DNA of 64,000 nt, taken from NCBI GenBank assembly GCA_963719225.1, contig CAVRAY010000001.1, forward strand, positions 2,112,001-2,176,000. Direction: 5' to 3'. The first letter of the stretch is position 1, and the number at the start of each line of letters is the position of its first letter. Of the stretch, positions 1 through 63,512 are shown in pieces. The translations under genes were made by a program, and so were the position numbers. The stretch is from Thermoanaerobaculia bacterium. Lineage in GTDB: Bacteria > Acidobacteriota > Thermoanaerobaculia > UBA5066. The notes below the pieces were generated by a model that worked only from the letters and a program-made list of their open reading frames with translations, had not been told where the DNA came from and did no database searches.

Positions 1-368
1 AGGTCGATGAACTGTTCCGGCAGGACGATGTCGGTCGGCTCGTAGGCTTCCTTCATCGAGCCGCACGCCGACGCCGACAACAGCCATGAGCAGCCCAGCT
101 TCCGGAATCCCCAGACGTTCGCGCGGTAGTTGATCTCGGAGGGGAGAAACGAATGATGCCGTCCGTGCCGGGCGAGAAACGCGACGGGGACCGAAGTGAG
201 AGTCCCGAGAACGTAGGAGTCGGACGGGGCGCCGAAGGGCGTCGAAAGCCGCCGCTCCTCGAGGATCTTTAGACCAGGCAGGTTGTAGAGCCCCGAGCCG
301 CCGATGAGGCCGATTCGCCTCTCCCCCCTCTTCCCTTTCGAAGAAATCTTCTTCTTCTCTTTCTTCAT
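1..368 (-). CDS. mtnP: S-methyl-5'-thioadenosine phosphorylase (partial, runs off window start)
   Basis: Hand translation of the minus strand from ATG 368 gives ...IGLIGGSGLY...TPFGAPS...FLARHGRHH..PSEINYRANVW...SACGSM...EQFIDL, typical of MTAP/PNP-2. The start overlaps the upstream gene's stop (ATGA). Confidence 0.9.
   Translation of the reverse strand, partial: MKKEKKKISSKGKRGERRIGLIGGSGLYNLPGLKILEERRLSTPFGAPSDSYVLGTLTSVPVAFLARHGRHHSFLPSEINYRANVWGFRKLGCSWLLSASACGSMKEAYEPTDIVLPEQFID
321..368. repeat. Single copy of the TTC-N3-GAA purine/pyrimidine-tract motif
   Basis: CCCTTTCGAAGAAATCTTCTTCTTCTCT (core 337-345); encodes the N-terminal extension MKKEKKKISSKGKRGE of MtnP. Confidence 0.6.
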
Positions 369-1309
369 CTTCCCCGCCCCATCTCCTCGAGGATGTCGAG
401 CGCGAGCTCGAGCGCCGCGCGGCCGGCTGCGCCCGTCACTTCCGGCTCGCTGCGCTCGGCGCAGGCCTTCAGGAACGCGCCGTCCTCGGCGGTGAGCGGG
501 TCCGCGGGCTCGACCGTCACGGGCCACGGCACGATGCGCGGCGGGCCGCTGAGCCGGTCGAGGCGGAAGGCCGTCACGTCGCGGTTCTGGGTGTCGATCG
601 AGAAGTACCAGTCCGGCTGGAAGAAGCGGAATTTCCGCGTCTTGTCCTGCGAGACGCGCGAGGCAGTCAGGTTCGCCACGCAACCGCCCTCGAACGAAAG
701 GCGAACCGAGGCGATGTCGATCTTCTCGCTCAGGATCGGCACGCCGACAGCCCGGATCTCCGTGACCGGCTTTCCCACGAGGTCGAGCGCGATGTCGAGG
801 TCGTGGACGAGGAGGTCCAGGACGACGTCCACGTCGAGAGCGCGCGGCACGAAGACACCGAGCCGGTGGGCCTCGATGAACTTGACGTCCGTCACGAGGG
901 GGCGCACCGCGGCCACCGCCGGATTGAAGCGCTCGATGTGCCCGACCTGCAGAACGCGCCCCTTTTCCCGCGCGAGAGCGACGAGGCGGTCGGCTTCGGC
1001 CAGAGTCACCGTGATCGGCTTCTCGACCATGACGTCGGCTCCGCCGGTGAGAAGCTCTTCGGCCACGCCGGCATGCGTGGAGGTCGGCGACGAGACGACG
1101 ACCGCCGTGGCGCCCGCGCTCAGGAGCTCCTTCACGGAGCGCCTCCGGACGAGCCCCTTCGACCCGTGCGCAGCCTCGATGGCGGACGCCGTGGCGTCGT
1201 CCGGCTCGACGAAGCCGACCGGGTCGGACCCGGCGAGCTCCGTGAGGATCCGCGCGTGGTGCCGGCCGAGATAGCCGCATCCCACGACGCCTGTCCGGAT
1301 TCTCGCCAT
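365..1309 (-). CDS. Gfo/Idh/MocA family oxidoreductase (possibly GnnA-like UDP-GlcNAc 3-dehydrogenase)
   Basis: GVVGCGYLG Rossmann motif, VEKP, QVGHIERFNP, DLLVHDLD. Confidence 0.85.
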   Translation of the reverse strand: MARIRTGVVGCGYLGRHHARILTELAGSDPVGFVEPDDATASAIEAAHGSKGLVRRRSVKELLSAGATAVVVSSPTSTHAGVAEELLTGGADVMVEKPITVTLAEADRLVALAREKGRVLQVGHIERFNPAVAAVRPLVTDVKFIEAHRLGVFVPRALDVDVVLDLLVHDLDIALDLVGKPVTEIRAVGVPILSEKIDIASVRLSFEGGCVANLTASRVSQDKTRKFRFFQPDWYFSIDTQNRDVTAFRLDRLSGPPRIVPWPVTVEPADPLTAEDGAFLKACAERSEPEVTGAAGRAALELALDILEEMGRGR

Positions 1310-1422
1310 GCGCGGCGCAGTCTAAGGGATGGTCCACGGCCGCAACATGATCAGTTGGAATCAATTGAGAGCCGGCGCCTTGCCCCGGCACGTGCTGACC
1401 GCGTAACCTCCGCGGCTTCTCC

Positions 1423-4416
1423 ATGAGCAGCCGCGACTGGAAATCCACGCTCCTCCTCCCGAAGACGGAGTTTCCGATGAAGGCGGACCTTCCGAGGCGG
1501 GAGCCCGCCCGGCTTGCCCGGTGGCAGGCGGAGGATCTCTACGGGAGGCTCCGGTCGGCGCGCGCGGGCGCTCCGCGTTTTCTGCTCCACGACGGACCGC
1601 CGTACGCGAACGGCAAGATTCACATCGGCACGGCGATGAACAAGATCCTGAAGGACCTCGTCGTGCGGACGAGGACCCTCGCGGGCCTCGACGCGCCCTA
1701 CGTGCCCGGCTGGGACTGCCACGGCCTGCCCATCGAGCTGAGCGTGGACAAGGAGCTGGGACCCAGGAAGCGCGAGATGTCCGACGTCGAGGTCCGCCAG
1801 GCCTGCCGGAAGTTCGCCGAAAAGTGGATCGACATTCAGCGCGCCGACTTCAAGCGCCTCGGGATCCTCGGCAGGTGGGACTCGCCTTATCGCACGATGG
1901 ACTTCTCCTACCAGGCCGAGATCGCGAAGGCCTTCGGCGGATTCGTGGACCGCGGACTCGTCACGTTCGGTTTCAAGAGCGTGCTCTGGTGCGTGCGCGA
2001 CCGGACCGCGCTCGCCGAAGCGGAGATCGAGTACGAGGATCGAACGGATCCATCCATCTACGTCGCGATGCCGCTGGATGAAGATTCCTCGAAAGGCGCG
2101 TGGCCGGGCCTCGCAGAGGCGGCCGGTGCGCCGCGCCTGTACGCCCTGATCTGGACCACGACGCCGTGGACGCTGCCCGCGAACAGGGCGATTACTCTTG
2201 GCAAGGAAATCGAATACATGTTTCTTAGAAGGGAATCCGAGCCAGGCGCCGCGTACATCGTCGCGGAAGCGCTCGTTCCGCAGGTGACGGCCACTCTCGG
2301 CTGGACGGACGCCTCCCCTATTCCCCTTTCTAAGAAAAGCGGCGAGGCGATTCGGGACGCCGGCCTCAAGTACAGGCGGCCGTTCGCCGAACCGTCCGAA
2401 ACCAATTTCGGATTTCTCCTCGGCGAGCACGTGTCGACGACCGACGGCACGGGCCTGGTGCACACGGCGCCCGGGCACGGCCGCGACGACTACGAGGTCG
2501 TGAGGCGGCACGGCTTCAAGGTCGACGATCCCTCCCTCTGCCCGGTCGACGAGGGCGGCTTCTACGACGTGAACGCACCGGAGTTCCTGCGCGGAAAAAG
2601 GGTGGTCATCCCGAAGACTCCCGACCAGAGCGCGAACGACGCCGTCCTGGCGGCGCTCGCCACGAGCCCGGCAGAGGCCGCTTCCTTCGCGGGACGTCCC
2701 GACAAGGATCACTCCGGCTCTCTCCTCCTTTCGAAGAAATCTCTCTCCCACTCCTATCCGCACTGCTGGCGGTGCAAGCAGCCCGTCATCTTCCGCGCGA
2801 CTCACCAGTGGTTCATCGATCTGCACGCGATCCGCGAGCAGGCGCTCCGTGAGATTCACGACCGCGTCCGTTGGGTGCCGCCCTTCGGCGAGAACCGCAT
2901 CGGCGCGATGGTCGAGAATCGCCTCGAGTGGGCGATCTCGCGCCAGCGCCGCTGGGGCTCTCCGATCACGTTCCTCCGGTGCGCGGACTGCAGGGAGAAG
3001 GGCGTGATCTCGCACTATCCCTCGGTCGAGGGAACGGTCGGAGAGAGAAAAAAGAAAGAAAGAGAAGATTTCTTTGAAAGGGTAAGAGGGACCTTCCGCG
3101 AGCACGGAGCGGACGCCTGGTACGACGACGCGTTCCCCCCGTCTTACTTTCTAAGAAAATCTTCCTCTTCTTCTTCGTCTTCCTCTGCTTCCTGCGCGCG
3201 GTGCGGCGGCAGCTCGTTCGAGAAGGTCAAGGACATCCTCGACGTCTGGTTCGACTCGGGGGTTTCGCACGCGGCCGTGCTCCGTTCGGGCGACTACGGG
3301 CTTCCGGATCCGTACACCTCCAAGCCCCCGACGCCGGTCGTCTACCTCGAAGGCCACGACCAGCATCGGGGCTGGTTCCAGTCGTCCCTCCTGACGTCCG
3401 TCGCTCTCACGGGCAGCGCGCCGTACGACGCCGTGATCACGCACGGCTTCGTCGTGGCGGGGGACGGCCGGAAGATGTCGAAATCGCTCGGAAACACGGT
3501 GGACCCGCACGACGTCATCAAGAAGGACGGCGCCGACGTGCTGCGGCTCTGGGTGGCCTCGCTCGACTACACGAACGACGATCCCGTCTCCGAGGAAATC
3601 CTCAAGCGCACGGCCGAGGCGTATCGCAAGATCCGCAATACGGCACGCTTCCTCCTGTCGAACCTCTTCGACTTCGACCCCGCGAAGGATTCCGTGGCGA
3701 AAGACCGGATCGAGCCGCTGGACCGGTACATCCTGGACGTAGCGGCGCGCGTCGCGGCGGATTGCCGGCAAGCGAACGAGGCATACGCGTTTCACGTCGG
3801 CGTGCGTCGCCTCCTCGAGTTCGTGACGTCGGATCTCTCCGCCTTCTGGTGCGACGTCCGGAAGGACGTCCTCTACATCCTCGCCGCGAACGATCCGGTC
3901 CGGCGCTCCGCGCAGACCGCCGCCCACCGCCTCGCCGAGACGATCGCGCTCGCCCTCTCACCCATCTGTCCGTTCACGGCCGAGGAAATCTGGGAAGCCA
4001 TCCCGGGGAATGCATCAGATCCGGCCGCGCTCTTCCTGAAGAGCTGGAACGACCTCGAGCTTCCCGAGATTTCTTCGCGTGAAAGAGAGGCGTGGGGACG
4101 CGTCCTCGCGCTTCGAGCGGAGTTCCTGCAGGGCCTCGAGCCGCTCCGGAGAGAGGGAAGAGTCGGTTCCGCTTCCCAGGCGACGGCGGTCGTGGGGCGA
4201 GGCGGTGCCGTCGACGAGGCGCTCGCCGCTCTTTCCTTCTCAGAAGAAAAGCTCGCTGACGTTCTTGGAACACCGTCGGTCGTGCGGGAGGGAGTGGCGG
4301 ATGCGATCGCCGTGCGTCCCGCCGAGGGCTCCAAGTGCCCGCGCTGCTGGCAGGTGCGCACGGACGTCGAGCCCGACGGAACCTGCGCGCGCTGCCGCCG
4401 TGTGGTTGGCGAGTAG
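1423..4416 (+). CDS. ileS: Isoleucine--tRNA ligase (type 1)
   Basis: LHDGPPYANGKIHIGT, PGWDCHGLPIE, WTTTPWTLP, GTGLVHTAPGHG, ISRQR, LDVWFDSG, KMSKS, C-terminal CPRC..CARC; directly upstream of lspA. Confidence 0.97.
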   Translation: MSSRDWKSTLLLPKTEFPMKADLPRREPARLARWQAEDLYGRLRSARAGAPRFLLHDGPPYANGKIHIGTAMNKILKDLVVRTRTLAGLDAPYVPGWDCHGLPIELSVDKELGPRKREMSDVEVRQACRKFAEKWIDIQRADFKRLGILGRWDSPYRTMDFSYQAEIAKAFGGFVDRGLVTFGFKSVLWCVRDRTALAEAEIEYEDRTDPSIYVAMPLDEDSSKGAWPGLAEAAGAPRLYALIWTTTPWTLPANRAITLGKEIEYMFLRRESEPGAAYIVAEALVPQVTATLGWTDASPIPLSKKSGEAIRDAGLKYRRPFAEPSETNFGFLLGEHVSTTDGTGLVHTAPGHGRDDYEVVRRHGFKVDDPSLCPVDEGGFYDVNAPEFLRGKRVVIPKTPDQSANDAVLAALATSPAEAASFAGRPDKDHSGSLLLSKKSLSHSYPHCWRCKQPVIFRATHQWFIDLHAIREQALREIHDRVRWVPPFGENRIGAMVENRLEWAISRQRRWGSPITFLRCADCREKGVISHYPSVEGTVGERKKKEREDFFERVRGTFREHGADAWYDDAFPPSYFLRKSSSSSSSSSASCARCGGSSFEKVKDILDVWFDSGVSHAAVLRSGDYGLPDPYTSKPPTPVVYLEGHDQHRGWFQSSLLTSVALTGSAPYDAVITHGFVVAGDGRKMSKSLGNTVDPHDVIKKDGADVLRLWVASLDYTNDDPVSEEILKRTAEAYRKIRNTARFLLSNLFDFDPAKDSVAKDRIEPLDRYILDVAARVAADCRQANEAYAFHVGVRRLLEFVTSDLSAFWCDVRKDVLYILAANDPVRRSAQTAAHRLAETIALALSPICPFTAEEIWEAIPGNASDPAALFLKSWNDLELPEISSREREAWGRVLALRAEFLQGLEPLRREGRVGSASQATAVVGRGGAVDEALAALSFSEEKLADVLGTPSVVREGVADAIAVRPAEGSKCPRCWQVRTDVEPDGTCARCRRVVGE
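2221..2340. repeat. Inverted pair of the TTC-N3-GAA motif inside ileS
   Basis: TTTCTTAGAAGGG (core 2222-2230) and CCCCTTTCTAAGAAAA (core 2328-2336). Confidence 0.6.
3041..3192. repeat. Inverted pair of the motif with flanking purine and pyrimidine tracts inside ileS
   Basis: GAAGATTTCTTTGAAAGGGTAAGAGGG (core 3070-3078) versus CCGTCTTACTTTCTAAGAAAATCTTC (core 3149-3157); encodes KKKEREDFFERVRG and FLRKSSSSSSSSS. Confidence 0.7.
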
Positions 4417-4425
4417 AATCCAGAC

Positions 4426-4926
4426 GTGTCGCGCCGGCTCGTCTATTTCGGAATCTCGCTTGCCGTCGTGGCCCTGGACCAGATCACCAAGGCGATCGTG
4501 GCCGCGCGGATTCCGCTCCACGACACGATTCCCGTGATCCGGGGCTTCTTCGACCTCACGCACGTGAGGAATCGGGGCACCGCGTTCGGCCTCTTCGCGC
4601 TGACCGACTCGCCGGCACGCACGTTGATCCTCACGCTCGTGGCGGCGGGGGTCTTTCTCGGCGTCCTCGCGTGGTCGCTCACCTCGCCCGTCACGCACAC
4701 GCGTCTTCAGACCGCGCTCGCGCTCGTCCTGGGCGGCGCGGTGGGGAACCTGATCGACCGCGTTCGCTTTCAGTCGGTGACGGATTTCCTGCGTTTCTAC
4801 GTGGACCGGTGGGAGTGGCCGTCCTTCAACGTCGCCGACAGCGCGATCAGCGTGGGGGTCGCGCTCCTCGCGTGGGACATCTGGCGGCATCCGCAGAAAG
4901 AGCCCGAGACGTGCACCCAGAGCTGA
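4426..4926 (+). CDS. lspA: Lipoprotein signal peptidase II
   Basis: DQITK, NRGTAFG, GNLIDR, VTDF, FNVADSAI; hydrophobic segments. Confidence 0.95.
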   Translation: MSRRLVYFGISLAVVALDQITKAIVAARIPLHDTIPVIRGFFDLTHVRNRGTAFGLFALTDSPARTLILTLVAAGVFLGVLAWSLTSPVTHTRLQTALALVLGGAVGNLIDRVRFQSVTDFLRFYVDRWEWPSFNVADSAISVGVALLAWDIWRHPQKEPETCTQS

Positions 4927-5693
4927 TCCACATCGGGAGCTTCGCTCTCCCGAGCTACGGCGTGATGATGGCGCTCGGGTTCATCGCGGCGTTGTGGCTC
5001 GTCAGAAGGCGCGCCCCCGCGTTCGGTGTCGCCCCGGATGCGGCCTCGGACATCGGCATCTGGCTCCTCCTCTCGGGCCTCGTGGGCGCGAAGCTCCTCC
5101 TCGTGATCGTGGAATGGCCGCAATACGTCTCGTCCTGGGGCGGCCTGAAAGACCTCGCACGCGCGGGCGGCGTTTTCTACGGAGGCCTGATCGGCGCGCT
5201 CGTGGCCACCGTCGTGCTCCTTCGCAGGCGCGAGATCCCGTTCTTCACCTTCGCCGATATCGCCGCGCCGGCCGTCGCGCTCGGACAGGCCCTCGGCCGC
5301 GTCGGCTGCCTCCTCGCCGGCTGTTGCTGGGGCCGCGAATGCGCGCTTCCCTGGGCGATCACCTTCACCGACCCGAAGGCGCACGAGAACGTCGGAGTCC
5401 CGCTCGACGTTCCCCTTCATCCGACCCAGGTCTACGAGGCCGTGGGCACGCTCGTCCTGTGCATCCTGCTCCTCGTCCTCGAGCGCCGCCGTTACTCGGG
5501 CGAGACGTTCGTACGCTATCTGTTCGGCTACGCGCTGCTCAGGTTCGTCATCGAGCTCTTCCGCGGCGACCCCCGCGGGTCGGTGTTCGGCGCGATGTCG
5601 ACGTCGCAGTTCATCGCTCTCTGCGGCGTGGCCGTGGCGGTCGTGCTCTGGGCCCTGCGCCGCAAAACGGCTCCGGCGCCCGCCGCCGCGTGA
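4911..5693 (+). CDS. lgt: Prolipoprotein diacylglyceryl transferase
   Basis: GTG start at 4911 (VHPELI); YGVM, GGVFYGG, GRVGC, HPTQVYE, RFVIELFRGD. Confidence 0.93.
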   Translation: MHPELIHIGSFALPSYGVMMALGFIAALWLVRRRAPAFGVAPDAASDIGIWLLLSGLVGAKLLLVIVEWPQYVSSWGGLKDLARAGGVFYGGLIGALVATVVLLRRREIPFFTFADIAAPAVALGQALGRVGCLLAGCCWGRECALPWAITFTDPKAHENVGVPLDVPLHPTQVYEAVGTLVLCILLLVLERRRYSGETFVRYLFGYALLRFVIELFRGDPRGSVFGAMSTSQFIALCGVAVAVVLWALRRKTAPAPAAA

Positions 5694-6676
5694 CCGGCGC
5701 GCCGCGCAGGATCCGCGCCGACCGGGGTGACGGGGGCGAGCGCCTCGACCGCGTACTGCTCCGGCACCTGAACGACCTGCCCGAGGCGTCGCGCACGAAG
5801 ATCCAGGAGTGGATCGAAAGCGGCTGTGTTTCGCTCGGAGGAAGAAAACCGAAGAAGATCTCCGAGAAGGTCAGGACGGGAGACGAGATCCAGATCCACC
5901 TTCCCGCTCCGCCCCCTCCTCGCCCCGACCTCGTGGCCCAGGACATCCCGCTCTCGATTCTATTCGAAGATTCCGAGATCCTCGTCCTCGACAAGCCTCC
6001 CGGCCTCGTCGTGCATCCCGCCGTCGGACACCGCGACGGCACGCTCGTGAACGCGCTTCTCCACCGCTCGAAGGATTGGGCCGGCCCCGCAGATCGACCC
6101 GGGCTCGTCCATCGGCTCGACAAGGACACGTCTGGGGTCCTCGTCGTCGCGAAAACCGAAACGGCAATGGCAGTTCTGGGGAGAGCAATAAAAGAGAGAT
6201 TCCTAGAAAAGGAATATCTGGCCGTCGTCTACGGGCACCCTGCCGTCCGCAAGGGAAAAATCGAGATGGGCATCCTGCGGGACCCGAGGGACCGCAAGCG
6301 CATGGCCGCCTCGAAAACCGAAGGACGTCCATCGACCACCTTCTATGAAATTCTTTCCGAATCCTCGGGCTCCCTCTCCGGTCTCTCTCTCCTGAAATGC
6401 ACCCTCGTCACCGGACGCACGCACCAGATCCGCGTCCACCTCAAGGCTCTTCACCTACCCATCGTGGGAGACCCGACATACGGCTCACCGCGGTGGAAGG
6501 GGATGAAGGTCGAGGCGCTCCGCGAGCTCTGCCGGACTTTTCCCCGCCAGGCGCTCCACTCCTGGCGCCTCACGCTTAAGCATCCGACGACGCGCGAAAA
6601 GATGAGTTTCGTCGCACCGGTGCCCGGCGACATCAAGAGTCTTCTCGAAGCAGCCGGGCTCCCGCCGCCGGTGTAA
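5690..6676 (+). CDS. rluD: RluA-family 23S rRNA pseudouridine synthase with S4 domain
   Basis: GTG at 5690 overlaps the lgt stop; RLDR..SRT S4 domain, KPPGLVVHP, VHRLDKDTSG, GRTHQIRVH, GDPTYG. Confidence 0.88.
   Translation: MTGAPRRIRADRGDGGERLDRVLLRHLNDLPEASRTKIQEWIESGCVSLGGRKPKKISEKVRTGDEIQIHLPAPPPPRPDLVAQDIPLSILFEDSEILVLDKPPGLVVHPAVGHRDGTLVNALLHRSKDWAGPADRPGLVHRLDKDTSGVLVVAKTETAMAVLGRAIKERFLEKEYLAVVYGHPAVRKGKIEMGILRDPRDRKRMAASKTEGRPSTTFYEILSESSGSLSGLSLLKCTLVTGRTHQIRVHLKALHLPIVGDPTYGSPRWKGMKVEALRELCRTFPRQALHSWRLTLKHPTTREKMSFVAPVPGDIKSLLEAAGLPPPV
6191..6358. repeat. Degenerate inverted pair of the motif inside rluD
   Basis: GAGAGATTCCTAGAAAAGG (core 6200-6208) and CCTTCTATGAAATTCTTTCC (core 6341-6349). 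Confidence 0.5.
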
Positions 6677-6687
6677 TCTAAACAGCG

Positions 6688-9125: not shown

Positions 9126-9139
9126 CCGCTCCCGCCCCT

Positions 9140-10669: not shown

Positions 10670-10697
10670 GTTCGGTGCGTTCCTTTCGCGTTCGGGG

Positions 10698-11271: not shown

Positions 11272-11283
11272 ACCGGAGGCGAT

Positions 11284-23430: not shown

Positions 23431-23736
23431 ATGGTCACGTTCGAATATCGGTTCGATGTTCTCCCGGGAAAGCTGAAGGAGTACGAAAAGTACGTCAAGG
23501 GTCCCGGCAAGGACGTCTGGCTGAAGTTCAAGGGCGTCAGGAGCGTTCGCGTCTACAAGAGCATGCTGGGAGGATCGTCTCCCCAGCGGCTCGTCCAGGT
23601 CGACCTCGAGAGCCTCGCGGCGCTCGAGAACATCCTCACGGACTCGACCTTCCGCAAGCTCAAGCAGACGTTCCACGGCCTCGTCACGCACGTCAGCGAC
23701 TCCCTGCTCACGCAGGTGAGCGACAAGAAGAGGTAG
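23431..23736 (+). CDS. Small hypothetical protein (dimeric alpha+beta barrel/NIPSNAP-like)
   Basis: Strong AAGGAGG Shine-Dalgarno; FDVLPGKLKEYEKY pattern. Confidence 0.7.
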   Translation: MVTFEYRFDVLPGKLKEYEKYVKGPGKDVWLKFKGVRSVRVYKSMLGGSSPQRLVQVDLESLAALENILTDSTFRKLKQTFHGLVTHVSDSLLTQVSDKKR

Positions 23737-31753: not shown

Positions 31754-33784
31754 ATGAGTGACTCCCTGCAGGCTCTTTTTCGCCCGAATGGTCTGGCCGT
31801 CATCGGCGCCTCCGCGAAGCCCGGCAAGCTCGGCTTCACGATTTTCAAGAACATCCTCGACGCGGGATTCGGCGGCCCGGTCATTCCCGTGAACCCGAAG
31901 GGCGAGACGATTCTCGGAGTCCCGTCCGTCAAGTCGGTGGAGGACGTCCCTTCCGGCACCGACCTGGCGGTCGTCATCGTTCCGGCCGCATCCGTCCCCG
32001 CAACCATCCTCCAGCTCGGCGAACGAAAGGTTCGCGCGGCCATCGTCATCACGGGAGGATTCGCCGAATCGGGAGCGGATGGAGCCCGCTTGCAGGAAGA
32101 GGTCAAGCGAAACGCCGCTCAATGCGGCATCCGGGTGGTCGGGCCGAACTGCCAGGGCGTGAACTATCCGCACAACGGTCTCTGCGCGTCATGGCCCCTG
32201 ATCACCCGGAAGGGCGCGATGGCCATTGCCTCGCAGAGCGGAACGGTCGGGGCCGCTCTCATCGACTGGGCCGCCGAGGAGAGACTCGGCTTCTCGGCGT
32301 TCGTGAGCATGGGGAACAGGATCGACGTGGACGAGGCCGACCTGATCGAGTTCTTCGCCGCCGATCCGAACACGAAAGTGATCACGCTCTACATCGAAGG
32401 TGTGAAGGATGCTCCGCGCTTTCTGTCGGCCGTCCGGGCATGCCCGAAACCCATCGTGATCTTCAAGGCCGGGCGGACGGACCAGGGACGCAAAGCGGCC
32501 GAATCGCACACCCGCTCGCTCGCCGGGAAGGACGAGATCTACGACGCCGTCTTCCGGCAATTCGGCATCCACCGCGCGGCCTCTCTCGAGGAGCTCTACG
32601 ACTTCTCCAAGGCTCTGGCCTACGTGCCGGCTCCCGCCGGACCGCGGATGCTCATCGTCACGAGCTCGGGAGGGTCCGCGATCATCGCGACGGACGTCGC
32701 AGCGGACAATGGTTTTCGAATCAGCCCGCTGCCCGCTTCCCTTGCAGCGCGGCTACGGGAATTTCTCCCGTCTCACTTCATCGTCGGGAACCCGCTCGAT
32801 CTCACGGGGGACGGCGACGCTGAGGTCTTCCGACGCGTCATCGCGACGGCACGGGATCACTACGACGTCGTCCTGACGATCTTCGGCGATCCGATTCCCG
32901 GCGCATCGAAAGCGCTGGAGCCGGGGAACACGGACCTCGTCGCGTATCTCGGAGGCGCCGACGTCGAAAGGACCGAGCGTCTGCTCTTTCACGAAAAGGG
33001 GATTGCCGTTTTCCCGACGCCGGACCGCGCCGTGAAGGCGTATTCCTGCCATGTCCGCTTTGCCCGCGACCGGTTTCCCCGGATGCCCGAGGCGCCTGCC
33101 GCTTCCGCGGCTCCGACCTCCTCCGCAAAGTCCCTTTCGCCCGGCGACTCGATGTCTTTCCTGGCGCACGAGGGAATCAACGTCGCGCCTTCGGCGCAGG
33201 CGGGGACGGAGGACGAAGCGGTCGCGGCCGCCCGGAGAATCGGCTATCCCGTGGCAGTGAAAATGAACTCCCCGGACGTGACGCACAAGAGCGACGTGGG
33301 AGGAGTGGTCCTGAACGTGAAGGAGGAGACGGGAGTTCGCGCGGCCTTCCACGACCTCGAGCGCATCGTGCGCCAGCTGGGGGCGCGATCTGGCGGAGTC
33401 CTCGTCAGCGCGATGGCCGCGCGGGGGCTCGAGATCATCGTGGGCGTGACCCGCGATCTCCAGTTCGGCCACGCCGTGATGTTCGGCATGGGGGGAACCC
33501 TCGTCGAGGTCTTCAAGGACGTGTCGTTCCGTATCGTTCCCTTCGGTGAGGAGGACGCGGCCGAGATGATCGGGGAAACCAAGGGAGCGAAGCTGTTGGA
33601 GGGCGTGCGCGGCGGAAGGCCCGCCGACGTGGCGGCGCTCCGCCAGCTTCTCGTTCAGGTCTCCGGCCTCGTGACGCGGCACCCCGAGATCGACGAGATG
33701 GACCTGAATCCGGTCATCGTCCACGAGAAAGGCCTGACGGTCGTGGACAGCAGGGTCGTTCTGTCCGCGGAAAGAACGGGATGA
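31754..33784 (+). CDS. ADP-forming acyl-CoA synthetase (fused alpha-beta acetate--CoA ligase family)
   Basis: AVIGAS..KLG, GPNCQG, SQSG, AAESHT (phospho-His present), THKSDVGGV, MDLNP. Confidence 0.9.
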   Translation: MSDSLQALFRPNGLAVIGASAKPGKLGFTIFKNILDAGFGGPVIPVNPKGETILGVPSVKSVEDVPSGTDLAVVIVPAASVPATILQLGERKVRAAIVITGGFAESGADGARLQEEVKRNAAQCGIRVVGPNCQGVNYPHNGLCASWPLITRKGAMAIASQSGTVGAALIDWAAEERLGFSAFVSMGNRIDVDEADLIEFFAADPNTKVITLYIEGVKDAPRFLSAVRACPKPIVIFKAGRTDQGRKAAESHTRSLAGKDEIYDAVFRQFGIHRAASLEELYDFSKALAYVPAPAGPRMLIVTSSGGSAIIATDVAADNGFRISPLPASLAARLREFLPSHFIVGNPLDLTGDGDAEVFRRVIATARDHYDVVLTIFGDPIPGASKALEPGNTDLVAYLGGADVERTERLLFHEKGIAVFPTPDRAVKAYSCHVRFARDRFPRMPEAPAASAAPTSSAKSLSPGDSMSFLAHEGINVAPSAQAGTEDEAVAAARRIGYPVAVKMNSPDVTHKSDVGGVVLNVKEETGVRAAFHDLERIVRQLGARSGGVLVSAMAARGLEIIVGVTRDLQFGHAVMFGMGGTLVEVFKDVSFRIVPFGEEDAAEMIGETKGAKLLEGVRGGRPADVAALRQLLVQVSGLVTRHPEIDEMDLNPVIVHEKGLTVVDSRVVLSAERTG

Positions 33785-33880
33785 AGAGGAGATTCTCTTA
33801 GAAGGTGAGGGGACTGTCGGACGCCCGACAAACGCCCCAGCGGGTCATGGGCCCCAGCGACACTCACCCTTCTAAGAAGG
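33785..33880. repeat. Intergenic inverted pair of the motif between convergent genes
   Basis: GAGATTCTCTTAGAAGGTGAG versus CTCACCCTTCTAAGAA (core 33870-33878). Confidence 0.6.
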
Positions 33881-34666
33881 CGGCGCGTAGCGCCGCTGAC
33901 CGAACGCCTTTTTGATGAACCGCGTCGAAGCCCCGAGAACCTCCTCCGGCCGCTCCGAATGCGGGGAGTGGCCGCAACCCGGAAGGATCAGGGACTCCGC
34001 CGGCCCGCCGACCTGCGTCACGATCGCGTCCACCTGCTTTTGAGTGCCGTACTGGTCGTCCTCGCCCTGGACGACGAGCACGGGGCACTCGATCGCCGGC
34101 AAATACTCCTCGAGGTTCCACTGCCGGAACCCGGGGCTGAGCCAGACGTCGGACCACCCTCTGAACATCGAATCGGCGTTGTCGCCGTGGTGCCGGGCGA
34201 GGCGCTCTTTCAGGCGCGTCGTCTCGTAATCCGCCGTGATTCGCGTGATCCCTTCGACGCTGACAGGTTCCACGAAGACGTGCGGCGCCTCGACGACCAG
34301 CGCGCGGACCGAACGTGGATGCGCGCCCGCATGGATGAGCGCGATCGAAGCGCCGTCGCTGTGGCCGAAAAGGACGGCGTGATCGAGCTCGAAGTGATCG
34401 AGAACGGCGGGCAGCATCTCGAGGGCCTCGTCGTGCATGTAATGCACCGGTCGCGGCCCGCGCAAGGGGTCGGATCCGCCATATCCCGTCCTGCTGTACA
34501 CGAGAGCGCCGCAGCCGGTCGCGGCGGCCAGTCGATCGGGGAAGTCGCGCCACATCGCGACACATCCGAGCCCCTCGTGCAGAAAGACGATCGACGGCGC
34601 TTCGCTCGGTCGCGGCCCGACCCAGCGGTATTCCAGGTGCCGCCCGAGTATTTCGAACGTCGTCAA
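33872..34666 (-). CDS. Alpha/beta hydrolase
   Basis: TTG 34666; FLHEGLG, GHSDGASIAL, QGEDDQYG, GHSPH. Confidence 0.88.
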   Translation of the reverse strand: MTTFEILGRHLEYRWVGPRPSEAPSIVFLHEGLGCVAMWRDFPDRLAAATGCGALVYSRTGYGGSDPLRGPRPVHYMHDEALEMLPAVLDHFELDHAVLFGHSDGASIALIHAGAHPRSVRALVVEAPHVFVEPVSVEGITRITADYETTRLKERLARHHGDNADSMFRGWSDVWLSPGFRQWNLEEYLPAIECPVLVVQGEDDQYGTQKQVDAIVTQVGGPAESLILPGCGHSPHSERPEEVLGASTRFIKKAFGQRRYAPPS

Positions 34667-39661: not shown

Positions 39662-41077
39662 CTAGACCACGCCGCGCTTCTTGAGCTGCGCGAGATCCGA
39701 TGGCCCGATTCCAAGTAGACGCAGGAAGATCTCCCCGTTGTCGTAGCCGAGCGGCCGGCCGATCCACTTCAGCCGCCCCGGACACTCGCTGGCGAGCGCC
39801 GGGCTCGTGCCGTAGAGGACCTTCCCGTAGAGTCGGTCCTCGATCTCGTCGACGTGCCCGCGGTACTTGAAATGCGGGTCCTCGGCGACTTCGTCGATGT
39901 AATTGACGCCGCCGGACGCGACCTGCTGGGCCAGCAGGTGGTGCATGGCGTCAGCCCGCGAGTGGTCCTTCTGCCAGTCGGCGAGGACGGTGTAGGTCTT
40001 CACCTGGCGAAGATGCGGGAGCCTCGCCGTGACGGCGCGCAGGGACTTGTCGTCGAGAATCTCGTCCTCGAGGTCGGGTCGTGTCTGGCCCACCGTCCGC
40101 CAGATCCGGTACCAGAGGCGATCGTGTCCACCGCCCACCATGAAATAGCCGTCCTTGCAGGGATTGACGGCATAGATGTTGATCGCGAGGTCCCAGTTCC
40201 CGTAGCGCGGGCGGATGCTGCCGTCGAACCCGTACCAGCCCCAGTTGTAGTCGAGGATGCGGATGATCCCTTCGGCTGCCGTCGCCTCGATGAACTGACC
40301 CTTGCCCGAAACCTTGTCGCGGTAGAGGAGCGCGGCCAGGATTCCGATCGCCGCGGCGGTCCCGCCGACCTGGTCCGCCACCCAGAGCGCCGAGCGGGTC
40401 GGCCGTCCGCCGAATTCCTTCGGGAGGCCCGTGCCGTGGACGAACCCGCAAGCCGCCTGTGCCGTCGGGTCGAGGTTGCCCGGCTTGTCCTTGGACGGAC
40501 CCCACTGCCCCTTCTGCCCGACCCAGCAGTAGACGAGACGCGGGTTGATCTCCTTCAGCTGCCGGTAGCCGATGCCCCACGCGTCGAACTGCCCCGGCGG
40601 GTAATTCTCGATGAGAACGTCGCAGTGAACCGCCAGCTTCTTGAGGAGCTCGCGGCCCTCTTCCTTTTCGAGATTGAGGGTGATGGACTGCTTGTTCCTC
40701 ATCTCGTGGAGGAAGTGGAGGCCGATCGGCTCGCCGGTCTCGGCGTCCTTGAACATGTACTCCTTGCGGCCGAACGGTGTCTGCCACCTGAGCGGGTCGC
40801 CATCGGGCGGCTCGCACTTGATGGTGTCGGCGCCGAGCTCAGAGAGCATCGAGGAGGCCCAGTTGCCGATGATCATTCCCTTGCTCAGGTCGAGAACCCG
40901 AACCGTCGTCAGGTTCTCGGGCTTCTTGAAGTTCTCGGACTGCCTGAGATCTTTTTCGAGGGATAGGGGATATTCCTTGGCCTGGTCCGTCATCCCGGCG
41001 TAGACCTCGTCGGGTGTCGGGATCGGAACCGCCGGCCACGGCAGGACTTTGTGCTTTGGATACGTGGAATCAGCCAT
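39662..41077 (-). CDS. Family III (CaiB/BaiF) CoA-transferase, subunit/paralog 1
   Basis: LSELGADTIKCEPPDGDPLR, RNKQSITLNL, DVLIENYPPG, WVADQVGG, GKGQFIE. Confidence 0.9.
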   Translation of the reverse strand: MADSTYPKHKVLPWPAVPIPTPDEVYAGMTDQAKEYPLSLEKDLRQSENFKKPENLTTVRVLDLSKGMIIGNWASSMLSELGADTIKCEPPDGDPLRWQTPFGRKEYMFKDAETGEPIGLHFLHEMRNKQSITLNLEKEEGRELLKKLAVHCDVLIENYPPGQFDAWGIGYRQLKEINPRLVYCWVGQKGQWGPSKDKPGNLDPTAQAACGFVHGTGLPKEFGGRPTRSALWVADQVGGTAAAIGILAALLYRDKVSGKGQFIEATAAEGIIRILDYNWGWYGFDGSIRPRYGNWDLAINIYAVNPCKDGYFMVGGGHDRLWYRIWRTVGQTRPDLEDEILDDKSLRAVTARLPHLRQVKTYTVLADWQKDHSRADAMHHLLAQQVASGGVNYIDEVAEDPHFKYRGHVDEIEDRLYGKVLYGTSPALASECPGRLKWIGRPLGYDNGEIFLRLLGIGPSDLAQLKKRGVV

Positions 41078-46627: not shown

Positions 46628-46753
46628 CCGAGCTGCGTGGTGACCTTGAAGCGCAACGATCGTAGCACGCAGCGGGGGCGTGCTCGCCGATCAACCGGAG
46701 GCGCCAAGGTCCCCGCTTGGCTTCCGCCGCCGGAGAAACGTATCGTCCGGGCC

Positions 46754-48514
46754 ATGCCTCTCGAGGAATATCGCAAGAAGCGCCGCTTCTCGGTCACGAA
46801 AGAGCCCGCGGGCGGGAACGCACCTAAAAAACGGGCGGCCGGCCTCGCCTATGTCATCCAGAAGCACCGCGCCACCGCGCTGCATTACGACTTCCGCCTC
46901 GAGTGGAAAAGCGTGCTGTTGTCGTGGGCCGTGCCGAAAGGCCCGTCGCTCGACCCGTCGGTGAAGCGGTTCGCCACCCACGTGGAGGATCACCCGATCG
47001 AATACGCTGCCTTCGAGGGGATCATTCCGGCGGGCGAGTACGGCGGGGGCACCGTCATGATCTGGGACAACGGGACGTGGACTCCGGAGACGCCCGACGT
47101 GGAGGCCGCCCTGAAGAAGGGCGAGCTGAAATTCGCACTTTCCGGAAAGAAGCTGAAGGGCTCGTGGGTTCTCGTGCGGACGAAGGGCTGGGGCAGCTCG
47201 TCCAAGCCCACGTGGCTCCTCATCAAACACCGGGACGACTTCGCCTCGGTGGAGGACATCGCGGAAACCCAGCCCCGGTCCGTCGTGTCGAATCGACTGC
47301 TGACCGAGATCGCGATCGACGAGGGCGGCGACGTCGAGAAAGCCTCGACGGGCGATCCCGTGAGCGAGGTCGAGAAGCTCCTGAAGCAGCCGAAGCTCCT
47401 CGATCGGAAGAAGAAGAAAACGCCTTCGGTCTGGCATTCGAACAGGAGCGTGGCGGAAAACGTGAAGTCCGAAGAGCACGAGGAGAAGATTTCTTCGAAG
47501 GGTAAGAGGGGGAAGGAAACCGCGCAGGCGACGCCGACGCACGGCGAAAAGTCGACGCGCGCATCGAAAGCCATACCCCTTTCTAAGAGATCTTCGTCTT
47601 CCTCTTCGTCTCCCTCTTCGTCTCCCTCTTCCTCAAAATACTCGTTCCCCGTCCCCGTCTCGAACCCCGACAAGGTTTTCTGGCCCGAAGAGGGATACAC
47701 GAAGGCGGATCTCGTCGCGTTCTATCAAGGCATCTTTCCGAGCCTGAAGCCCTACGTGGACGAGCGTCCGCTCTCCCTCGAGCGGTGTCCGGACGGGATG
47801 GGGGGCCAGTGCTTCTACCAGAAGGAGAAGCCGGCCGGGATGCCGAAGGACACCCGCACGGTGCCGGTCAAGCACGGGCGCGGCGTCACGAACACCGTCG
47901 TGGGCGGGAAGCTCGAAACGCAGCTCGCCCTCGCGAACCTCGGCTGCATTGCCGTCCACGCGTGGAACAGCCGCGCCGAAGACCTCGACCGGCCCGACTG
48001 GGTGTGCTTCGACCTCGACCCGGACACGGGCGAGATGGTCGACGCCGTGAACGCCGCGCTGAAGGTGAAGCAGGCCCTGGACGCGCTCGACCTCGTGGCT
48101 TTCGTGAAGACGTCGGGAGGGAAGGGCCTGCACATCTTCCTGCCGATCAAGCCGGGCCCGGACACGAAGGAAGTCACCTGGTTCGCCAAGGAGCTGGCGA
48201 CGCGCCTCACCGCCGCGTACCCGAAGGAGCTGACCGTGGAGATGCGCATCGCGGCGCGGAAAGGCCGCGTCTTCCTCGACTCTTTCCGAAACGCGCTCGG
48301 CCAGACCGTCGTCACGCCGTACTCGGTACGCAGGCGCCCGCACGCACCGGTCTCGACGCCGCTCGAATGGTCCGAGGTGAAGACATCCCTGAAGGCGGCC
48401 GACTTCAACCTCGGCAACTACGCCGAGCGGCTCCGGAAGAGAGACCCGTGGGCCAGGTTCTTCCGAAGCCGTCAGTCGCTGAAAAAGGCGATGGGCGCGC
48501 TGAAGAAGCTCTGA
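46754..48514 (+). CDS. ligD: LigD-like 3'-phosphoesterase + primase-polymerase (no ligase domain)
   Basis: ATG 46754; VIQKHRATALHYDFRLE, SWAVPKGPS, HVEDHP; SNPDKVFWP, FDLDP, KTSGGKGLH, TPYSVR. Confidence 0.88.
   Translation: MPLEEYRKKRRFSVTKEPAGGNAPKKRAAGLAYVIQKHRATALHYDFRLEWKSVLLSWAVPKGPSLDPSVKRFATHVEDHPIEYAAFEGIIPAGEYGGGTVMIWDNGTWTPETPDVEAALKKGELKFALSGKKLKGSWVLVRTKGWGSSSKPTWLLIKHRDDFASVEDIAETQPRSVVSNRLLTEIAIDEGGDVEKASTGDPVSEVEKLLKQPKLLDRKKKKTPSVWHSNRSVAENVKSEEHEEKISSKGKRGKETAQATPTHGEKSTRASKAIPLSKRSSSSSSSPSSSPSSSKYSFPVPVSNPDKVFWPEEGYTKADLVAFYQGIFPSLKPYVDERPLSLERCPDGMGGQCFYQKEKPAGMPKDTRTVPVKHGRGVTNTVVGGKLETQLALANLGCIAVHAWNSRAEDLDRPDWVCFDLDPDTGEMVDAVNAALKVKQALDALDLVAFVKTSGGKGLHIFLPIKPGPDTKEVTWFAKELATRLTAAYPKELTVEMRIAARKGRVFLDSFRNALGQTVVTPYSVRRRPHAPVSTPLEWSEVKTSLKAADFNLGNYAERLRKRDPWARFFRSRQSLKKAMGALKKL
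47481..47633. repeat. Inverted pair of the motif in the LigD linker
   Basis: GAAGATTTCTTCGAAGGGTAAGAGGGG (core 47491-47499) versus TACCCCTTTCTAAGAGATCTTC (47581-47589), followed by a CT-rich tract. Confidence 0.7.
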
Positions 48515-48515: not shown

Positions 48516-49163
48516 CTACTTCTTCCGGGTGTACTGGACTTCGAGCGACTTGAACATCTTGCCGTCGGGCCCCGTCGCCCACATCTGGTAGGTGTGGTGG
48601 TCGTCGTCCGTCACCGTCAGAATTCCCTTGACCTTGGTGGGCTTCTTCATGACGACGTCGTCCATCGTGGACCAGAAGGTGAACTTCTTCCCGGAGGCGT
48701 CCACGGTCCCGGTCGAGGTCATGAGCATCGTCCCCATGCTGTCCGCCCACGAGCCGACGTATTTCTTCTTGTAATTGTCGTACCCGGTCAGTCCCATGCC
48801 GTGGAACGGCTGGCCCATCGCCGTGCCTTCCACGTGCTCCTCCACGAACCGGCCGCCGAGCACCCACTTGCTCTCGGTCGTGCCGGTCGACTCCTCCGGG
48901 GGTTTCGAGGGATCCATCCACATTTTCGTCACCGCCGTGAAGGAGCCGACCATCGGCTCCAGCTTCTTGTGCGCCTCGCCGGGCGTCGCCACCGCCATCC
49001 AGGCCTTCATCATTTCGTCGTGGCTGGGCATGGACGGCTTCGCGGCAGCGGTTCCAGCGGGCTTCGCGGCTTCCTTGGGTTTCTCGTCCCCCAAAGCCGA
49101 ATAGGGGATGAGAAGTGAAAGAGCTGCTGAGAAAATAAGAGCGGAGGTTCGGAAGGGCTTCAT
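48516..49163 (-). CDS. Secreted DUF1579 family protein
   Basis: Signal peptide; PGEAHKKL..VG, GGRF, GLTGYDN..YVGSW.DSMGT. Confidence 0.82.
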   Translation of the reverse strand: MKPFRTSALIFSAALSLLIPYSALGDEKPKEAAKPAGTAAAKPSMPSHDEMMKAWMAVATPGEAHKKLEPMVGSFTAVTKMWMDPSKPPEESTGTTESKWVLGGRFVEEHVEGTAMGQPFHGMGLTGYDNYKKKYVGSWADSMGTMLMTSTGTVDASGKKFTFWSTMDDVVMKKPTKVKGILTVTDDDHHTYQMWATGPDGKMFKSLEVQYTRKK

Positions 49164-51527: not shown

Positions 51528-52529
51528 GTGCGGTTTCGAAACCCGGAGGGAAGCCTTCCCCAGATCGCAGGGGTTGCCGAGTTCGCACCCTTCTTCCTTC
51601 GCCGTCTTCGCGACCGCCATCCGCAGACGATCCCGGCGGGCCACGTCGTGCCCCTTGCTGAAGCGAAGGAGCAGCTCCGAAACGCGGGCCCGGAGTCGCT
51701 CACGTGGCTCGGCCACGCGTCGTTCCTCCTTCGAACCCGTGGCGTGACGATTCTGACCGATCCCTTCCTTTCGGACTGCGCGAGCCCCCTTCCCGGTTTC
51801 GGGCCGAGGCGATACGCGCCGCCGGGCCTGCCCCTCGAGGCGCTTCCGAAGATCGACGTCGTGCTGATCTCTCACAATCACTACGACCATCTCGATGCGA
51901 GGTCCGTAGAGGAGATTTCTTTGAAGGGAAAAGGGGAAGGAGCAGGCACGGCTGCAATCGTCCCCTCGGGGCTCGGCCGGTTCTTCGCGTCGCGGGGATA
52001 CTCGGATGTCCGCGAGCTCAGATGGGGCGAGGGCGCGCTTCTAAGAAATTCTTCATCTTCATCTTCGTCTTCCCCTGCCGTCTCCCTCTCCTGCCTCCCC
52101 TGCATCCACTTCTCCGGGCGCACGCCGTTCGACCGGAACGCGACCCTCTGGTGCTCGTGGTCGATCGTCTCCCCATCGCTCAAGCTCTTCTTCGCGGGCG
52201 ACACGGGTTACGGGCCGGTCTTCGCCCAACTCGGCGCTCGGTACGGCCCGTTCGACCTGGCCCTCGTGCCGATCGGCGCGTACGAGCCCGCGTCCATCAT
52301 GCGGCCCGTCCACTGCAATCCCGAGGAGGGCGTGGCCCTGGGCCGCGACGTGGGCGCGGCCACGCTCGTCGCGATGCACTGGGGCACGATCGTCCTGACG
52401 GACGAGCCCGCGTTCGAGCCGCCCGGCCGGTTCCGCGCCGCCGCCAGCCGCGCCGGTTTCACCGACGCCCGGACGTGGGTCATGCGGATCGGGGAGACTC
52501 GCGCGACGCCTCCTCGAGAAAAGTTTTGA
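51528..52529 (+). CDS. MBL-fold metallohydrolase (NAPE-PLD/RomA-like)
   Basis: TWLGHAS, LTDPF, SHNHYDHLD, FAGDTGY, PIGAYEP, MHWGT; start estimated at GTG 51528. Confidence 0.88.
   Translation: MRFRNPEGSLPQIAGVAEFAPFFLRRLRDRHPQTIPAGHVVPLAEAKEQLRNAGPESLTWLGHASFLLRTRGVTILTDPFLSDCASPLPGFGPRRYAPPGLPLEALPKIDVVLISHNHYDHLDARSVEEISLKGKGEGAGTAAIVPSGLGRFFASRGYSDVRELRWGEGALLRNSSSSSSSSPAVSLSCLPCIHFSGRTPFDRNATLWCSWSIVSPSLKLFFAGDTGYGPVFAQLGARYGPFDLALVPIGAYEPASIMRPVHCNPEEGVALGRDVGAATLVAMHWGTIVLTDEPAFEPPGRFRAAASRAGFTDARTWVMRIGETRATPPREKF
51911..52075. repeat. Inverted pair of the motif inside the MBL gene
   Basis: GAGATTTCTTTGAAGGGAAAAGGGG (core 51917-51925) versus CTTCTAAGAAATTCTTCATCTTC (core 52039-52047). 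Confidence 0.68.
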
Positions 52530-53130: not shown

Positions 53131-53143
53131 CTACAATCGCTCC

Positions 53144-53890: not shown

Positions 53891-53896
53891 TTCCCC

Positions 53897-56353: not shown

Positions 56354-56441
56354 GACCCGTGCGTCGAGACGCCTGATTCAGGGGAATCATCGCGCCTTCC
56401 GTCGAGACCGGATTCAATTCAGGTCCCGACGGAGGTTTGCC

Positions 56442-57089: not shown

Positions 57090-57141
57090 CGCCCGAGCCG
57101 TCGTGGCATCCCGATTGCGTTTGGTGGATCAGGGGTGTGCC

Positions 57142-57591: not shown

Positions 57592-57612
57592 AGGCCCGAG
57601 CGGTCGCCGGAT

Positions 57613-58422: not shown

Positions 58423-58527
58423 GAGAGCCACCTCCAACCGGGATTAGTTCATCCGAATCATCGCAAGACGAGGTCTCAATCGCCAAAGATGCACGGACAC
58501 GGACTAAACCCCTTACGGAGGTGGAAG

Positions 58528-59730: not shown

Positions 59731-59755
59731 GCGCTGAGGAATCGGAACGGCTCTC

Positions 59756-62342: not shown

Positions 62343-62350
62343 GGTGCCGC

Positions 62351-63055
62351 GTGCTTGAGGTCAAGGGTATCGACGTCTCGTATGGCGACGTGCAGGTCCT
62401 CTGGGACGTCTCCTTCGACGTGAAGAAGGGCGAGATCGTCGCCCTGATCGGGGCCAACGGCTCCGGAAAGACGACCACGCTGTCGACGATCTCTTCGCTC
62501 GTGAAACCGCGGAAGGGCTCCATCGAGTACGAAGGGCAGCCGATCCACGGCCGGGAGCCCCACGAGATGGTCGACCTCGGCATCGCGCACGTGCCCGAGG
62601 CGCGCCGTCTTTTCCCGGAGATGACCGTGAAGGAGAACCTCCTCCTCGGAGCGCTGACGCCGGCGGCGAAGAAGACCCGGCCGGAGATGCTGGAGAAGGT
62701 CTTCGCGATCTTTCCGCGCCTGAAGGAGCGCGAGAAGCAGCAAGCCGGCACCCTCTCGGGCGGCGAGCAGCAGATGGCCGCGATCGGCCGCGGGCTCATG
62801 TCCAAGCCGCGCCTTCTCATGCTGGACGAGCCGTCGCTCGGCCTGTCGCCGATCCTCGTCGCCGACATCTTCAGAGTCATCAAGGACGTCCACGAGGCGG
62901 GCGTCACGGTCCTCCTCGTCGAGCAGAACGTCTTCAAGACTCTCCAGATCGCGGACCGGGCGTACGTGCTCGGCAACGGGCGCATCGTGCTCAGCGGCAC
63001 GGGTGCCGCTCTCCTCGCGGACGACAACGTCCGCCAGGCATACCTCGGCCTCTAG
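62351..63055 (+). CDS. livF: Liv-type ABC ATPase (LivF-like)
   Basis: GANGSGKTT, LSGGEQQM, DEPSLGL, VEQN, YLG. Confidence 0.92.
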   Translation: MLEVKGIDVSYGDVQVLWDVSFDVKKGEIVALIGANGSGKTTTLSTISSLVKPRKGSIEYEGQPIHGREPHEMVDLGIAHVPEARRLFPEMTVKENLLLGALTPAAKKTRPEMLEKVFAIFPRLKEREKQQAGTLSGGEQQMAAIGRGLMSKPRLLMLDEPSLGLSPILVADIFRVIKDVHEAGVTVLLVEQNVFKTLQIADRAYVLGNGRIVLSGTGAALLADDNVRQAYLGL

Positions 63056-63512
63056 AGAGCCCGCTCAGGCTCGCCGTCGCCATCGCAAGGTGCGGTTCGG
63101 CGCCTCGTCGCGCCGAGAGCGCGATCGGATGGAGAAGAAGAAGATCTTCTGCGAATGCGTAAGAGCGGCGGATCGTCCGGCCGATACGGTTCGGGACGAA
63201 GCCGGTCTCGACGTGATGCAGGACTTCCTCCCGAGCCTCGATCACCTCCCACCGCCCCGCGTACCCGCCGTACGCGGCGCCTGCCGCCGCCAGCTCCGAG
63301 AGGGTCGGAGAGAATTCTCTGTGAAAGGGAGGACGGGAGGATCCCCGCGAAGTGGACGGACATCTCGAACCCGGAAGGCAGGTAGATCAGGATCCCCGCG
63401 GGGCGCTCGAACTCCCGAGGCGAACCCCCTCCCTTTTACCTTCGAAGGAATCTCCCTCTCTTCGATCCCCTCCAGCTCCCACACCCCGACGAACCGCTCG
63501 GAATCGCGTCAC
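63052..63512 (-). pseudogene. Frameshifted lipocalin-like domain gene (boundaries approximate)
   Basis: Pieces across frames join into RFVGVWELE..PAGILIY..MSVHFA..YGGYAGRWEV..VLHHVE..PNRIG..RRSY..DLLLL. Confidence 0.55.

Follow-up and report, generated by a model that had tools for sequence, protein, structure and literature searches.

Facing pairs of an asymmetric DNA motif recur throughout the genome of a Thermoanaerobaculia bacterium, and our analysis indicates that these pairs are very probably recombination hotspots, each at the centre of a 200-500 bp patch exchanged between species. The motif was noticed in a 64,000-nt stretch of contig CAVRAY010000001.1 (the window), for which an earlier note had listed copies from the sequence alone; we followed it through the source genome (coded G000, contigs C1 and C2) and its relatives. 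The element is real, is limited to two genera, namely a motif genus of uncultured Acidobacteria (g1) and its sister genus g11, and has no description in the literature searched, a search that did not extend to most subscription journals or to supplements. Another sister genus, g13, is motif-free.

Iterating a weight matrix genome-wide, we obtained an asymmetric consensus of about 35 bp, purine tract-GA(A/T)TTTCTT(A/C)GAA(G/A)G(G/T)GAARRGG, or in short form purine tract-GATTTCTT[A/C]GAAGG[G/T]GAARRGG. The core, TTCT-T-AGAA, is near-palindromic, and the asymmetry comes from the flanks, with a C-poor tract that extends outwards for about 25 bp and inwards for 15-20 bp. With sites defined by a position weight matrix score >14 bits and genes called de novo, the genome contains 800 sites, 541 of them coding. 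The codon-shuffle check proposed in the earlier note supported the motif clearly: three within-gene synonymous-codon shuffles yielded 68, 83 and 72 coding sites at this threshold, and above 25 bits the 274 observed coding sites compare with 1-7 in the shuffles. Furthermore, the exact 12-mer WTTCTTAGAADG has 215 genomic copies versus 5 for its reversed control. These counts confirmed that the motif occurs far above chance genome-wide. Sites within genes are evenly divided between sense (270) and antisense (271), revealing no gene-strand bias, and they use all six frames with a matrix equal to that of the intergenic sites. No enrichment of sites in divergent promoter regions was detected genome-wide.

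The sites are arranged in a strikingly one-sided manner. Adjacent sites face each other in 249 pairs at 30-320 bp, 145 of which lie inside one gene, whereas only 6 back-to-back pairs occur at less than 260 bp. Among 243 strong sites lacking a partner, a weak opposite partner was present on the inner side in 111 and on the outer side in 9, indicating that most sites belong to facing pairs. The shortest pair spacings are near 65-68 bp, the most frequent are 73-79 bp, and a tail reaches about 260 bp; the median is 85 bp for intergenic pairs, which favour 73-85 bp, and 119 bp for coding pairs. The single orientation together with the minimum of about 65 bp suggests two protein footprints. Rayleigh tests at periods of 9-12 bp on 235 de-duplicated pairs were not significant, and no 10.5-bp phasing was seen; the nucleoid or looping protein suggested in the earlier note is still a candidate, although such phasing is absent.

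A purely structural role, in which the two arms would form a long-range stem of RNA or single-stranded DNA, a cruciform or an H-DNA triplex, is very unlikely. The arms are complementary, with a mean arm-to-arm duplex energy of about -26 kcal/mol, and true partners pair slightly better than shuffled ones (z about -1.4 and -2.4), but this partner-specific gain is less than 1 kcal/mol. Core identity is likewise slightly higher between true partners (z 2.3), but their flanks do not covary (z 0.7-1.3), and no mirror axis stands out among the pairs. Moreover, back-to-back pairs would fold equally well yet are nearly absent, and no Rfam match was found within the window. With arm-to-arm and mirror covariation weak or absent, the cruciform or triplex explanation of the earlier note is not supported.

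To characterize recombination around the pairs, we analysed 73 codon alignments of 12-21 genus genomes each from five regions, all in the terminus half of the chromosome. Since discordance in the addAB region extends to site-free genes, eight alignments from it were excluded from the retention-index and linkage counts, leaving 65. Measured on a reference tree from site-free genes of the valS and ileS regions, the retention index was 0.25-0.28 inside pairs and rose outside them from 0.30 (23-50 bp) through 0.38 (51-100 bp), 0.45 (101-150 bp), 0.51 (151-250 bp) and 0.55 (251-400 bp) to 0.60 (>400 bp), close to the 0.62 of 38 site-free genes. Sixteen of 17 genes had a lower index close to sites (p=4e-4). 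The same dip appeared in the his/trp and fmt regions, which lie outside the reference tree, and persisted in the first region set when ileS and valS were removed. Near sites, linkage computed in indel-free columns dropped over about 100-200 bp from 0.20 to 0.12, and elsewhere it stayed flat at 0.21-0.23, a pattern that also holds at third positions; the long/short r2 ratio was 0.64 in 18 genes near sites versus 0.93 in 52 (p=7e-8). Since linkage decays only near sites, a faster clock or mutation rate alone does not explain the dip.

Further signs of exchange were concentrated at the same places. Fourteen of 18 cross-clade rare-allele tracts at the deepest split lie within 150 bp of a site, a zone holding 18% of columns. 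Between close relatives, the fraction of fourfold sites that differ is 0.36 inside pairs and 0.21 far from motif sites, and relatives at 93-97% identity fall to 60-75% over 200-400 bp around sites. The exchanged alleles are 20-25% diverged, the tracts are very short, and some imports have a near donor among the sampled genomes. In approximately unbiased (AU) tests, on segments chosen after seeing the profiles, the main or deepest clade was rejected in three of four site-bearing segments (p 3e-5, 3e-5 and 0.03; the fourth 0.07) and in neither of two controls; the segment tree of the pair in an RluA/RluD pseudouridine synthase gene rejects the main clade. In this genus, ileS, valS and similar markers give scrambled trees.

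Besides this post hoc choice of segments, several points weigh against hotspots at the pairs. The addAB region is discordant in site-free genes as well, one aminotransferase gene is discordant although its site lies only past the gene end, one weak pair (g1571) shows no dip, and sites prefer variable loops. In favour of hotspots, the homologous ileS zones of motif-free g13 were neither more divergent nor more discordant than the rest of the gene, although this control is shallow, with 9 genomes and low power. Between clades, fourfold sites are saturated and so cannot separate the models; a comparison using a block of C2 was also saturated, with amino-acid divergence of 0.254 near sites and 0.251 far from them. 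In this block (about 590-745 kb), origin-region genes, tmRNA and tRNA-Pro occur a second time, at about 75% protein identity; the block probably stems from another organism that was assembled into the contig, and 6.2% contamination is on record. In the addAB region itself, addA (C1:1934774-1941162) has two deep allele groups of about 52% identity that depart from the species tree, with a breakpoint near residue 850, and addB and neighbouring genes are similarly discordant. Among the joints listed from four sequencing runs, which were contigs of mixed relatives, none corresponded to an inversion or excision at a pair, a result that carries no weight in either direction.

We also traced the element across lineages. 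In 24 of 24 genus relatives the 12-mer WTTCTTAGAADG has many copies, 16 genomes of other families almost lack it, and among 250 genomes of the class none outside g1 and g11 had >4 matches. The pair pattern was present in 28 of 28 g1 genomes, in seven of eight g11 genomes (1-8 copies) and in none of 26 other family genomes; one outgroup genome in these counts (G025) is unpublished, and no conclusion depends on it. A scan of all species, covering 30 of 64 parts, returned 121 loci, all in Acidobacteriota and 67 labelled Thermoanaerobaculia. Viral contigs gave 0 matches to a 20-mer, and 31 pair-pattern matches in putative viral carriers, with GC of at most 0.52 and at most two scoring sites, were judged to be chance.

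Comparison of orthologs revealed how the sites arose. In IleRS, the alignment columns they occupy are identical across 22 genus orthologs, and 8 outgroups lack the sites. Substitutions built them up from seeds such as Phe-Phe-Glu codons, and g11 shows intermediate states. Between the arms lies ancestral gene sequence, and only the outer tract expands, as poly-Ser; of the IleRS segments that the earlier note wished to check as lineage-specific insertions, only these outer tracts are slippage expansions. Its proposal that selection or spread acts on the DNA and not on the protein was upheld by the use of six frames and both gene strands and by the fixed IleRS columns. Kinase paralogues at about 47% identity also keep the pair. 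About nine Ser/Thr kinase-WD40(PD40) genes stand in tandem at C1:2293328-2319750, and each of them retains a 93-bp motif pair, again at about 47% protein identity.

Because the sites arose by substitution over native coding sequence, Rickettsia palindromic elements (RPE), miniature inverted-repeat transposable elements (MITE), doublets of repetitive extragenic palindromic (REP) sequences known as REPIN, and retro-elements are excluded as the main cause, and a mobile coding repeat with the arms as its ends is extremely improbable. The likeness is real, as RPE, MITE, REP and REPIN also have inverted ends about 70-150 bp apart, lie in unrelated genes and are read in frame; in-gene, in-frame insertion is described for RPE in the available text of PMC10969869. 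Near dif, moreover, the length of intergenic spacers varies with the presence of a pair, and 11 of 71 intergenic interiors reached a score of at least 44 versus 3 of 71 shuffled ones. However, random intergenic pieces did so in 8 of 71, no shared interior family was found among the 71 intergenic pairs, and coding interiors are ancestral gene sequence, collinear with outgroups, so the RPE-like repeat of the earlier note does not fit. The expected mobile machinery is also inconsistent: Y1_Tnp/RAYT was not found in three of four genus genomes searched, the source genome included, and reverse transcriptase was present in one of five genomes searched and not found in four relatives. The sole reverse transcriptase (C2:869298-869993) lies near the contig end within a 120-kb site-free stretch.

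What the pairs do is less certain. We lean towards a paired signal resembling an uptake sequence, which would bias the uptake or integration of short fragments. In such a scheme, DNA would enter via the competence route, a predicted protein would read both arms of a facing pair, fragments carrying both arms would become likelier to be taken up or integrated, and the exchanged tract would carry the arms along, allowing the signal to spread through genes by molecular drive, like uptake sequences. Consistent with this, the exchange plateau covers both arms and fades outward over about 150-400 bp on each side, which suggests that tracts carry the signal, as drive requires. The paired-signal reading is also favoured by three further observations taken together: site host genes are housekeeping genes; three of four non-Xer integrase loci, a small sample, lie in site-free gaps of 44-48 kb, gaps of at least 43 kb covering 20% of the genome; and the genome encodes the competence proteins ComEC, ComEA, DprA, pilins and secretin, which are widespread and hence weak evidence.

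As a lead from sequence, a secreted two-domain ComEA paralogue is the best candidate for the reader. This tandem-ComEA protein (C1:1007226-1007921; L148:1000-1695) has a signal-like segment at its N terminus; a Ser/Lys/Ala linker of variable length, in which motif-type peptides recur across homologs, connects its two helix-hairpin-helix domains of the ComEA type. An orthologue was found in 20 of 24 g1 and four of five g11 genomes versus 2 of 23 other family genomes. ParB2, ComEA and AddA were rejected as readers tracking the motif, all three being family-wide and not following it.

Several results count against the uptake scheme and its candidate. Four motif-rich genomes, including two that are 99% complete, yielded no tandem ComEA, and motif-free families contain distant two-domain homologues; with so patchy a distribution the protein is a lead only. 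Relative to the resident alleles, imported ones score higher in 13 cases and lower in 14, giving no sign of ongoing drive, and uptake does not account for a threefold excess of sites towards the terminus. Published systems also differ. In Haemophilus influenzae, according to the available portion of PMC7811141, uptake gains nothing from having two uptake signal sequences within 100 bp, and degradation usually overtakes short fragments before they can recombine; in Neisseria, conversion tracts average 1.1-1.7 kb in the accessible text of PMC2397512.

In its general features the element works most like the DNA uptake sequences and uptake signal sequences (DUS/USS) of Neisseriaceae and Pasteurellaceae. 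As outlined in the available parts of PMC2817400 and PMC2397512, DUS/USS comprise hundreds of lineage-limited copies, mostly in core-gene coding DNA and in several frames, reshape the proteome, are scarce in acquired DNA, and are linked to recombination and more divergent flanks. Here, we likewise found lineage-limited over-representation, in-place build-up in core coding sequence, scarcity in acquired DNA, a link to recombination and competence genes. The working unit is different: instead of single sites we found the 249 facing pairs, in one orientation and 65-260 bp apart, whereas inverted pairs of DUS/USS, where known, lie within about 21 nt, serve as terminators and give no help to uptake through their pairing, as far as the available text of PMC2397512 and PMC7811141 goes. 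Furthermore, close-relative flanks are about 70% more divergent at fourfold sites here versus 15% near DUS in the available portion of that literature, tracts span hundreds of bases here and thousands there, and the threefold terminus bias is particular to the present element. Given the pairing, the tract size and the terminus bias, we did not file it as a DUS/USS member.

A more specific proposal, which we regard as tentative and would not bet on, is a patch-exchange system in which a protein reads two facing sites and the enclosed 100-300 bp or so, with flanks, form the transfer unit between species 20-30% diverged. If this were true, each genome would share about 300 small windows with one gene pool common to the genus, everything else would be inherited vertically, and the signal would spread itself by altering the proteins that host it. 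In the accessible text of PMC7811141 and 10.1101/2025.10.24.684340, sequence-directed DNA exchange signals are established in two proteobacterial families only. If the uptake-like reading holds, the present element would be a third such system, in Acidobacteriota, with a pair rule and very short tracts; marked spots of a few hundred bases could then let DNA cross species borders, and the poly-Ser and K/E/R-rich inserts in housekeeping enzymes would be scars of selection on DNA.

The distribution along the chromosome points in another direction. With dnaA and parS on C2 at 326-334 kb and dif at C1:2,037,574, site density is about threefold higher in the terminus half (coding 18.3 versus 6.6, intergenic 84.6 versus 28.4 per 100 kb), rising from 7-12 near the origin to 21-29 per 100 kb at the terminus (rho 0.59); among the matches listed, a second genome has a similar excess near dif. 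As the chief alternative, the pairs may accordingly be sites for a chromosome-organising or segregation protein acting mainly in the terminus half, with recombination as a by-product, although we consider this unlikely. Candidates would include a ParB paralogue beside dif, an imperfect lead, or a topoisomerase-loading factor, and the protein might nick or stall DNA or shield pieces of about 100-300 bp in released DNA. A second parA-parB operon (C1:2037865-2039524; L044:9865-11524), distinct from the origin parAB, indeed abuts dif family-wide, two pairs flank dif in the source genome, and the motif core TTTC-N3-GAA resembles parS (TTTC-N4-GAAA) with one base fewer. The intergenic preference for 73-85 bp fits as well, as does the behaviour of fourteen kinase paralogues that keep the pair, while one origin-proximal paralogue has lost the DNA score and kept the peptide scar.

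On the other side, two origin-side kinase paralogues retain strong sites, and the dif-flanking pairs come and go among relatives: several genus members lack them, as do the two g11 loci read. ParB2 is present in most of 62 family genomes searched, motif-free genera included, with a near-identical recognition helix. Its diagnostic helix residue is A in 34 of 34 motif-genus proteins and T in 15 of 16 others, but ordinary parS-binding ParBs also have A there (specificity and helix numbering follow the available text of PMC7383237). The absence of 10.5-bp phasing speaks against such a protein too, and a purely architectural role predicts no recombination plateau spanning the pair.

The element shares with matS/MatP, NBS/Noc (Noc-binding sites) and parS/ParB its dispersed sites graded on the origin-terminus axis, a parS-like core and a ParB paralogue at dif. 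The matS, NBS and parS sites are few and palindromic. Here, by contrast, about 800 asymmetric copies stand in facing pairs, and the ParB paralogue extends beyond the motif lineage; axis bias was thus seen, whereas a palindromic site and a protein tracking it were not (no MatP search was made). If the chromosome-protein explanation were nevertheless true, the sites would form a terminus-graded code of about 800 members. Genes for HU/IHF (four copies), gyrase/topo IV and Xer were located in the genome. Separately from the motif, GGGNAGGG is biased to the leading strand genome-wide (505 versus 326), a polarity like that of FtsK orienting polar sequences.

An improbable alternative places the action in the recipient: a nuclease or recombinase that tracks along DNA (Chi/AddAB-like or Type III-like) would take the pairs as head-to-head targets or stops and open the chromosome there, and whatever homologous DNA came in would be patched in over a few hundred bases. 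Facing orientation, unphased spacing and short tracts fit a tracking enzyme and break-stimulated repair; here the orientation is strict, the spacing broad and unphased, the tracts between 20-25% diverged alleles very short, and AddAB is encoded. Such an enzyme should, however, erode strong sites, yet at some columns 20 of 21 genomes retain a site, and imported alleles are no weaker. Like Chi with RecBCD/AddAB, the element consists of polar words marking recombination hotspots. Chi sites are short single words biased to a replichore, in contrast to a word of about 35 bp in facing pairs that lacks replichore polarity (singles 108 versus 135) and raises homoplasy on both sides.

The features of the window are collected in Table 1. 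All copies listed in the earlier note score except that at 9150, which is not a site (best score -5.6), and its pairs were borne out, save that the right arm at 52043 is degenerate, with the core kept and the inner flank lost. Of the peptides it read from the motif, FLRRE and DFFERVRG are present in IleRS; ISSKGKRG is present in LigD and was seen only there, leaving the label MtnP, its second reported host, unconfirmed.

Table 1. Motif sites, facing pairs and associated genes in the 64,000-nt window. Scores of pairs are given for left and right arms.
Feature	Position	Strand	Score (bits)	Spacing (bp)	Context
Motif site, centre 341	324..357	-	31		5' end of gene running off left window edge
ileS host gene	1423..4416	+			6 sites here, 7 site columns genus-wide; mosaic across species
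Facing pair 2226+/2332-	2210..2348		18/25	106	ileS, read FLRRES ... PLSKKS
Single site 2734-	2717..2750	-	25		ileS, read LLSKKS
Facing pair 3074+/3153-	3058..3169		35/34	79	ileS
Outer pyrimidine tract of 3153- arm	3160..3190	+			poly-Ser expansion, none to ~20 residues among orthologs
Weak site 4241-	4224..4257	-	8		ileS
lspA + lgt	4426..5693	+			site-free neighbours following species tree; internal control, outside the element
Facing pair 6204+/6345-	6188..6361		26/10	141	RluA/RluD pseudouridine synthase gene
Facing pair 33799+/33874-	33783..33890		29/10	75	between convergent genes; right arm overlaps stop codon
Weak site 40956+	40940..40973	+	11		CoA-transferase III gene
Facing pair 47495+/47585-	47479..47601		32/24	90	LigD linker, ISSKGKRG ... 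PLSKRSSSS
Site 49129+	49113..49146	+	15		absent from the earlier note
Facing pair 51921+/52043-	51905..52059		32/-1	122	metallo-beta-lactamase-fold gene
Site 63151+	63135..63168	+	18		
Facing pair 63321+/63445-	63305..63461		18/28	124	left arm absent from the earlier note

The left arm of the pair 3074+/3153- scores in 22 of 22 genus orthologs and the right arm in 20 of 22, and a facing partner of 341-, about 140-150 bp leftward, scores in 17 of 20 orthologs. Three motif sites lie in the roughly 900 bp at 63056-64000, where no gene was called and no family match found; the open reading frames (ORFs) at 63052-63363(-) and 63598-63966(+) had no family match either. A small basic protein (23431-23736) was dismissed as a reader, as it resembles ABM-fold clusters and not a DNA binder. 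Finally, ligD (46754-48514), with phosphoesterase and polymerase domains, adjoins an 859-aa DUF4388 protein on the opposite strand (region 44009-48514), and the 1290-aa ORF at 44642-48514 is an over-long read-through in the ligD frame.

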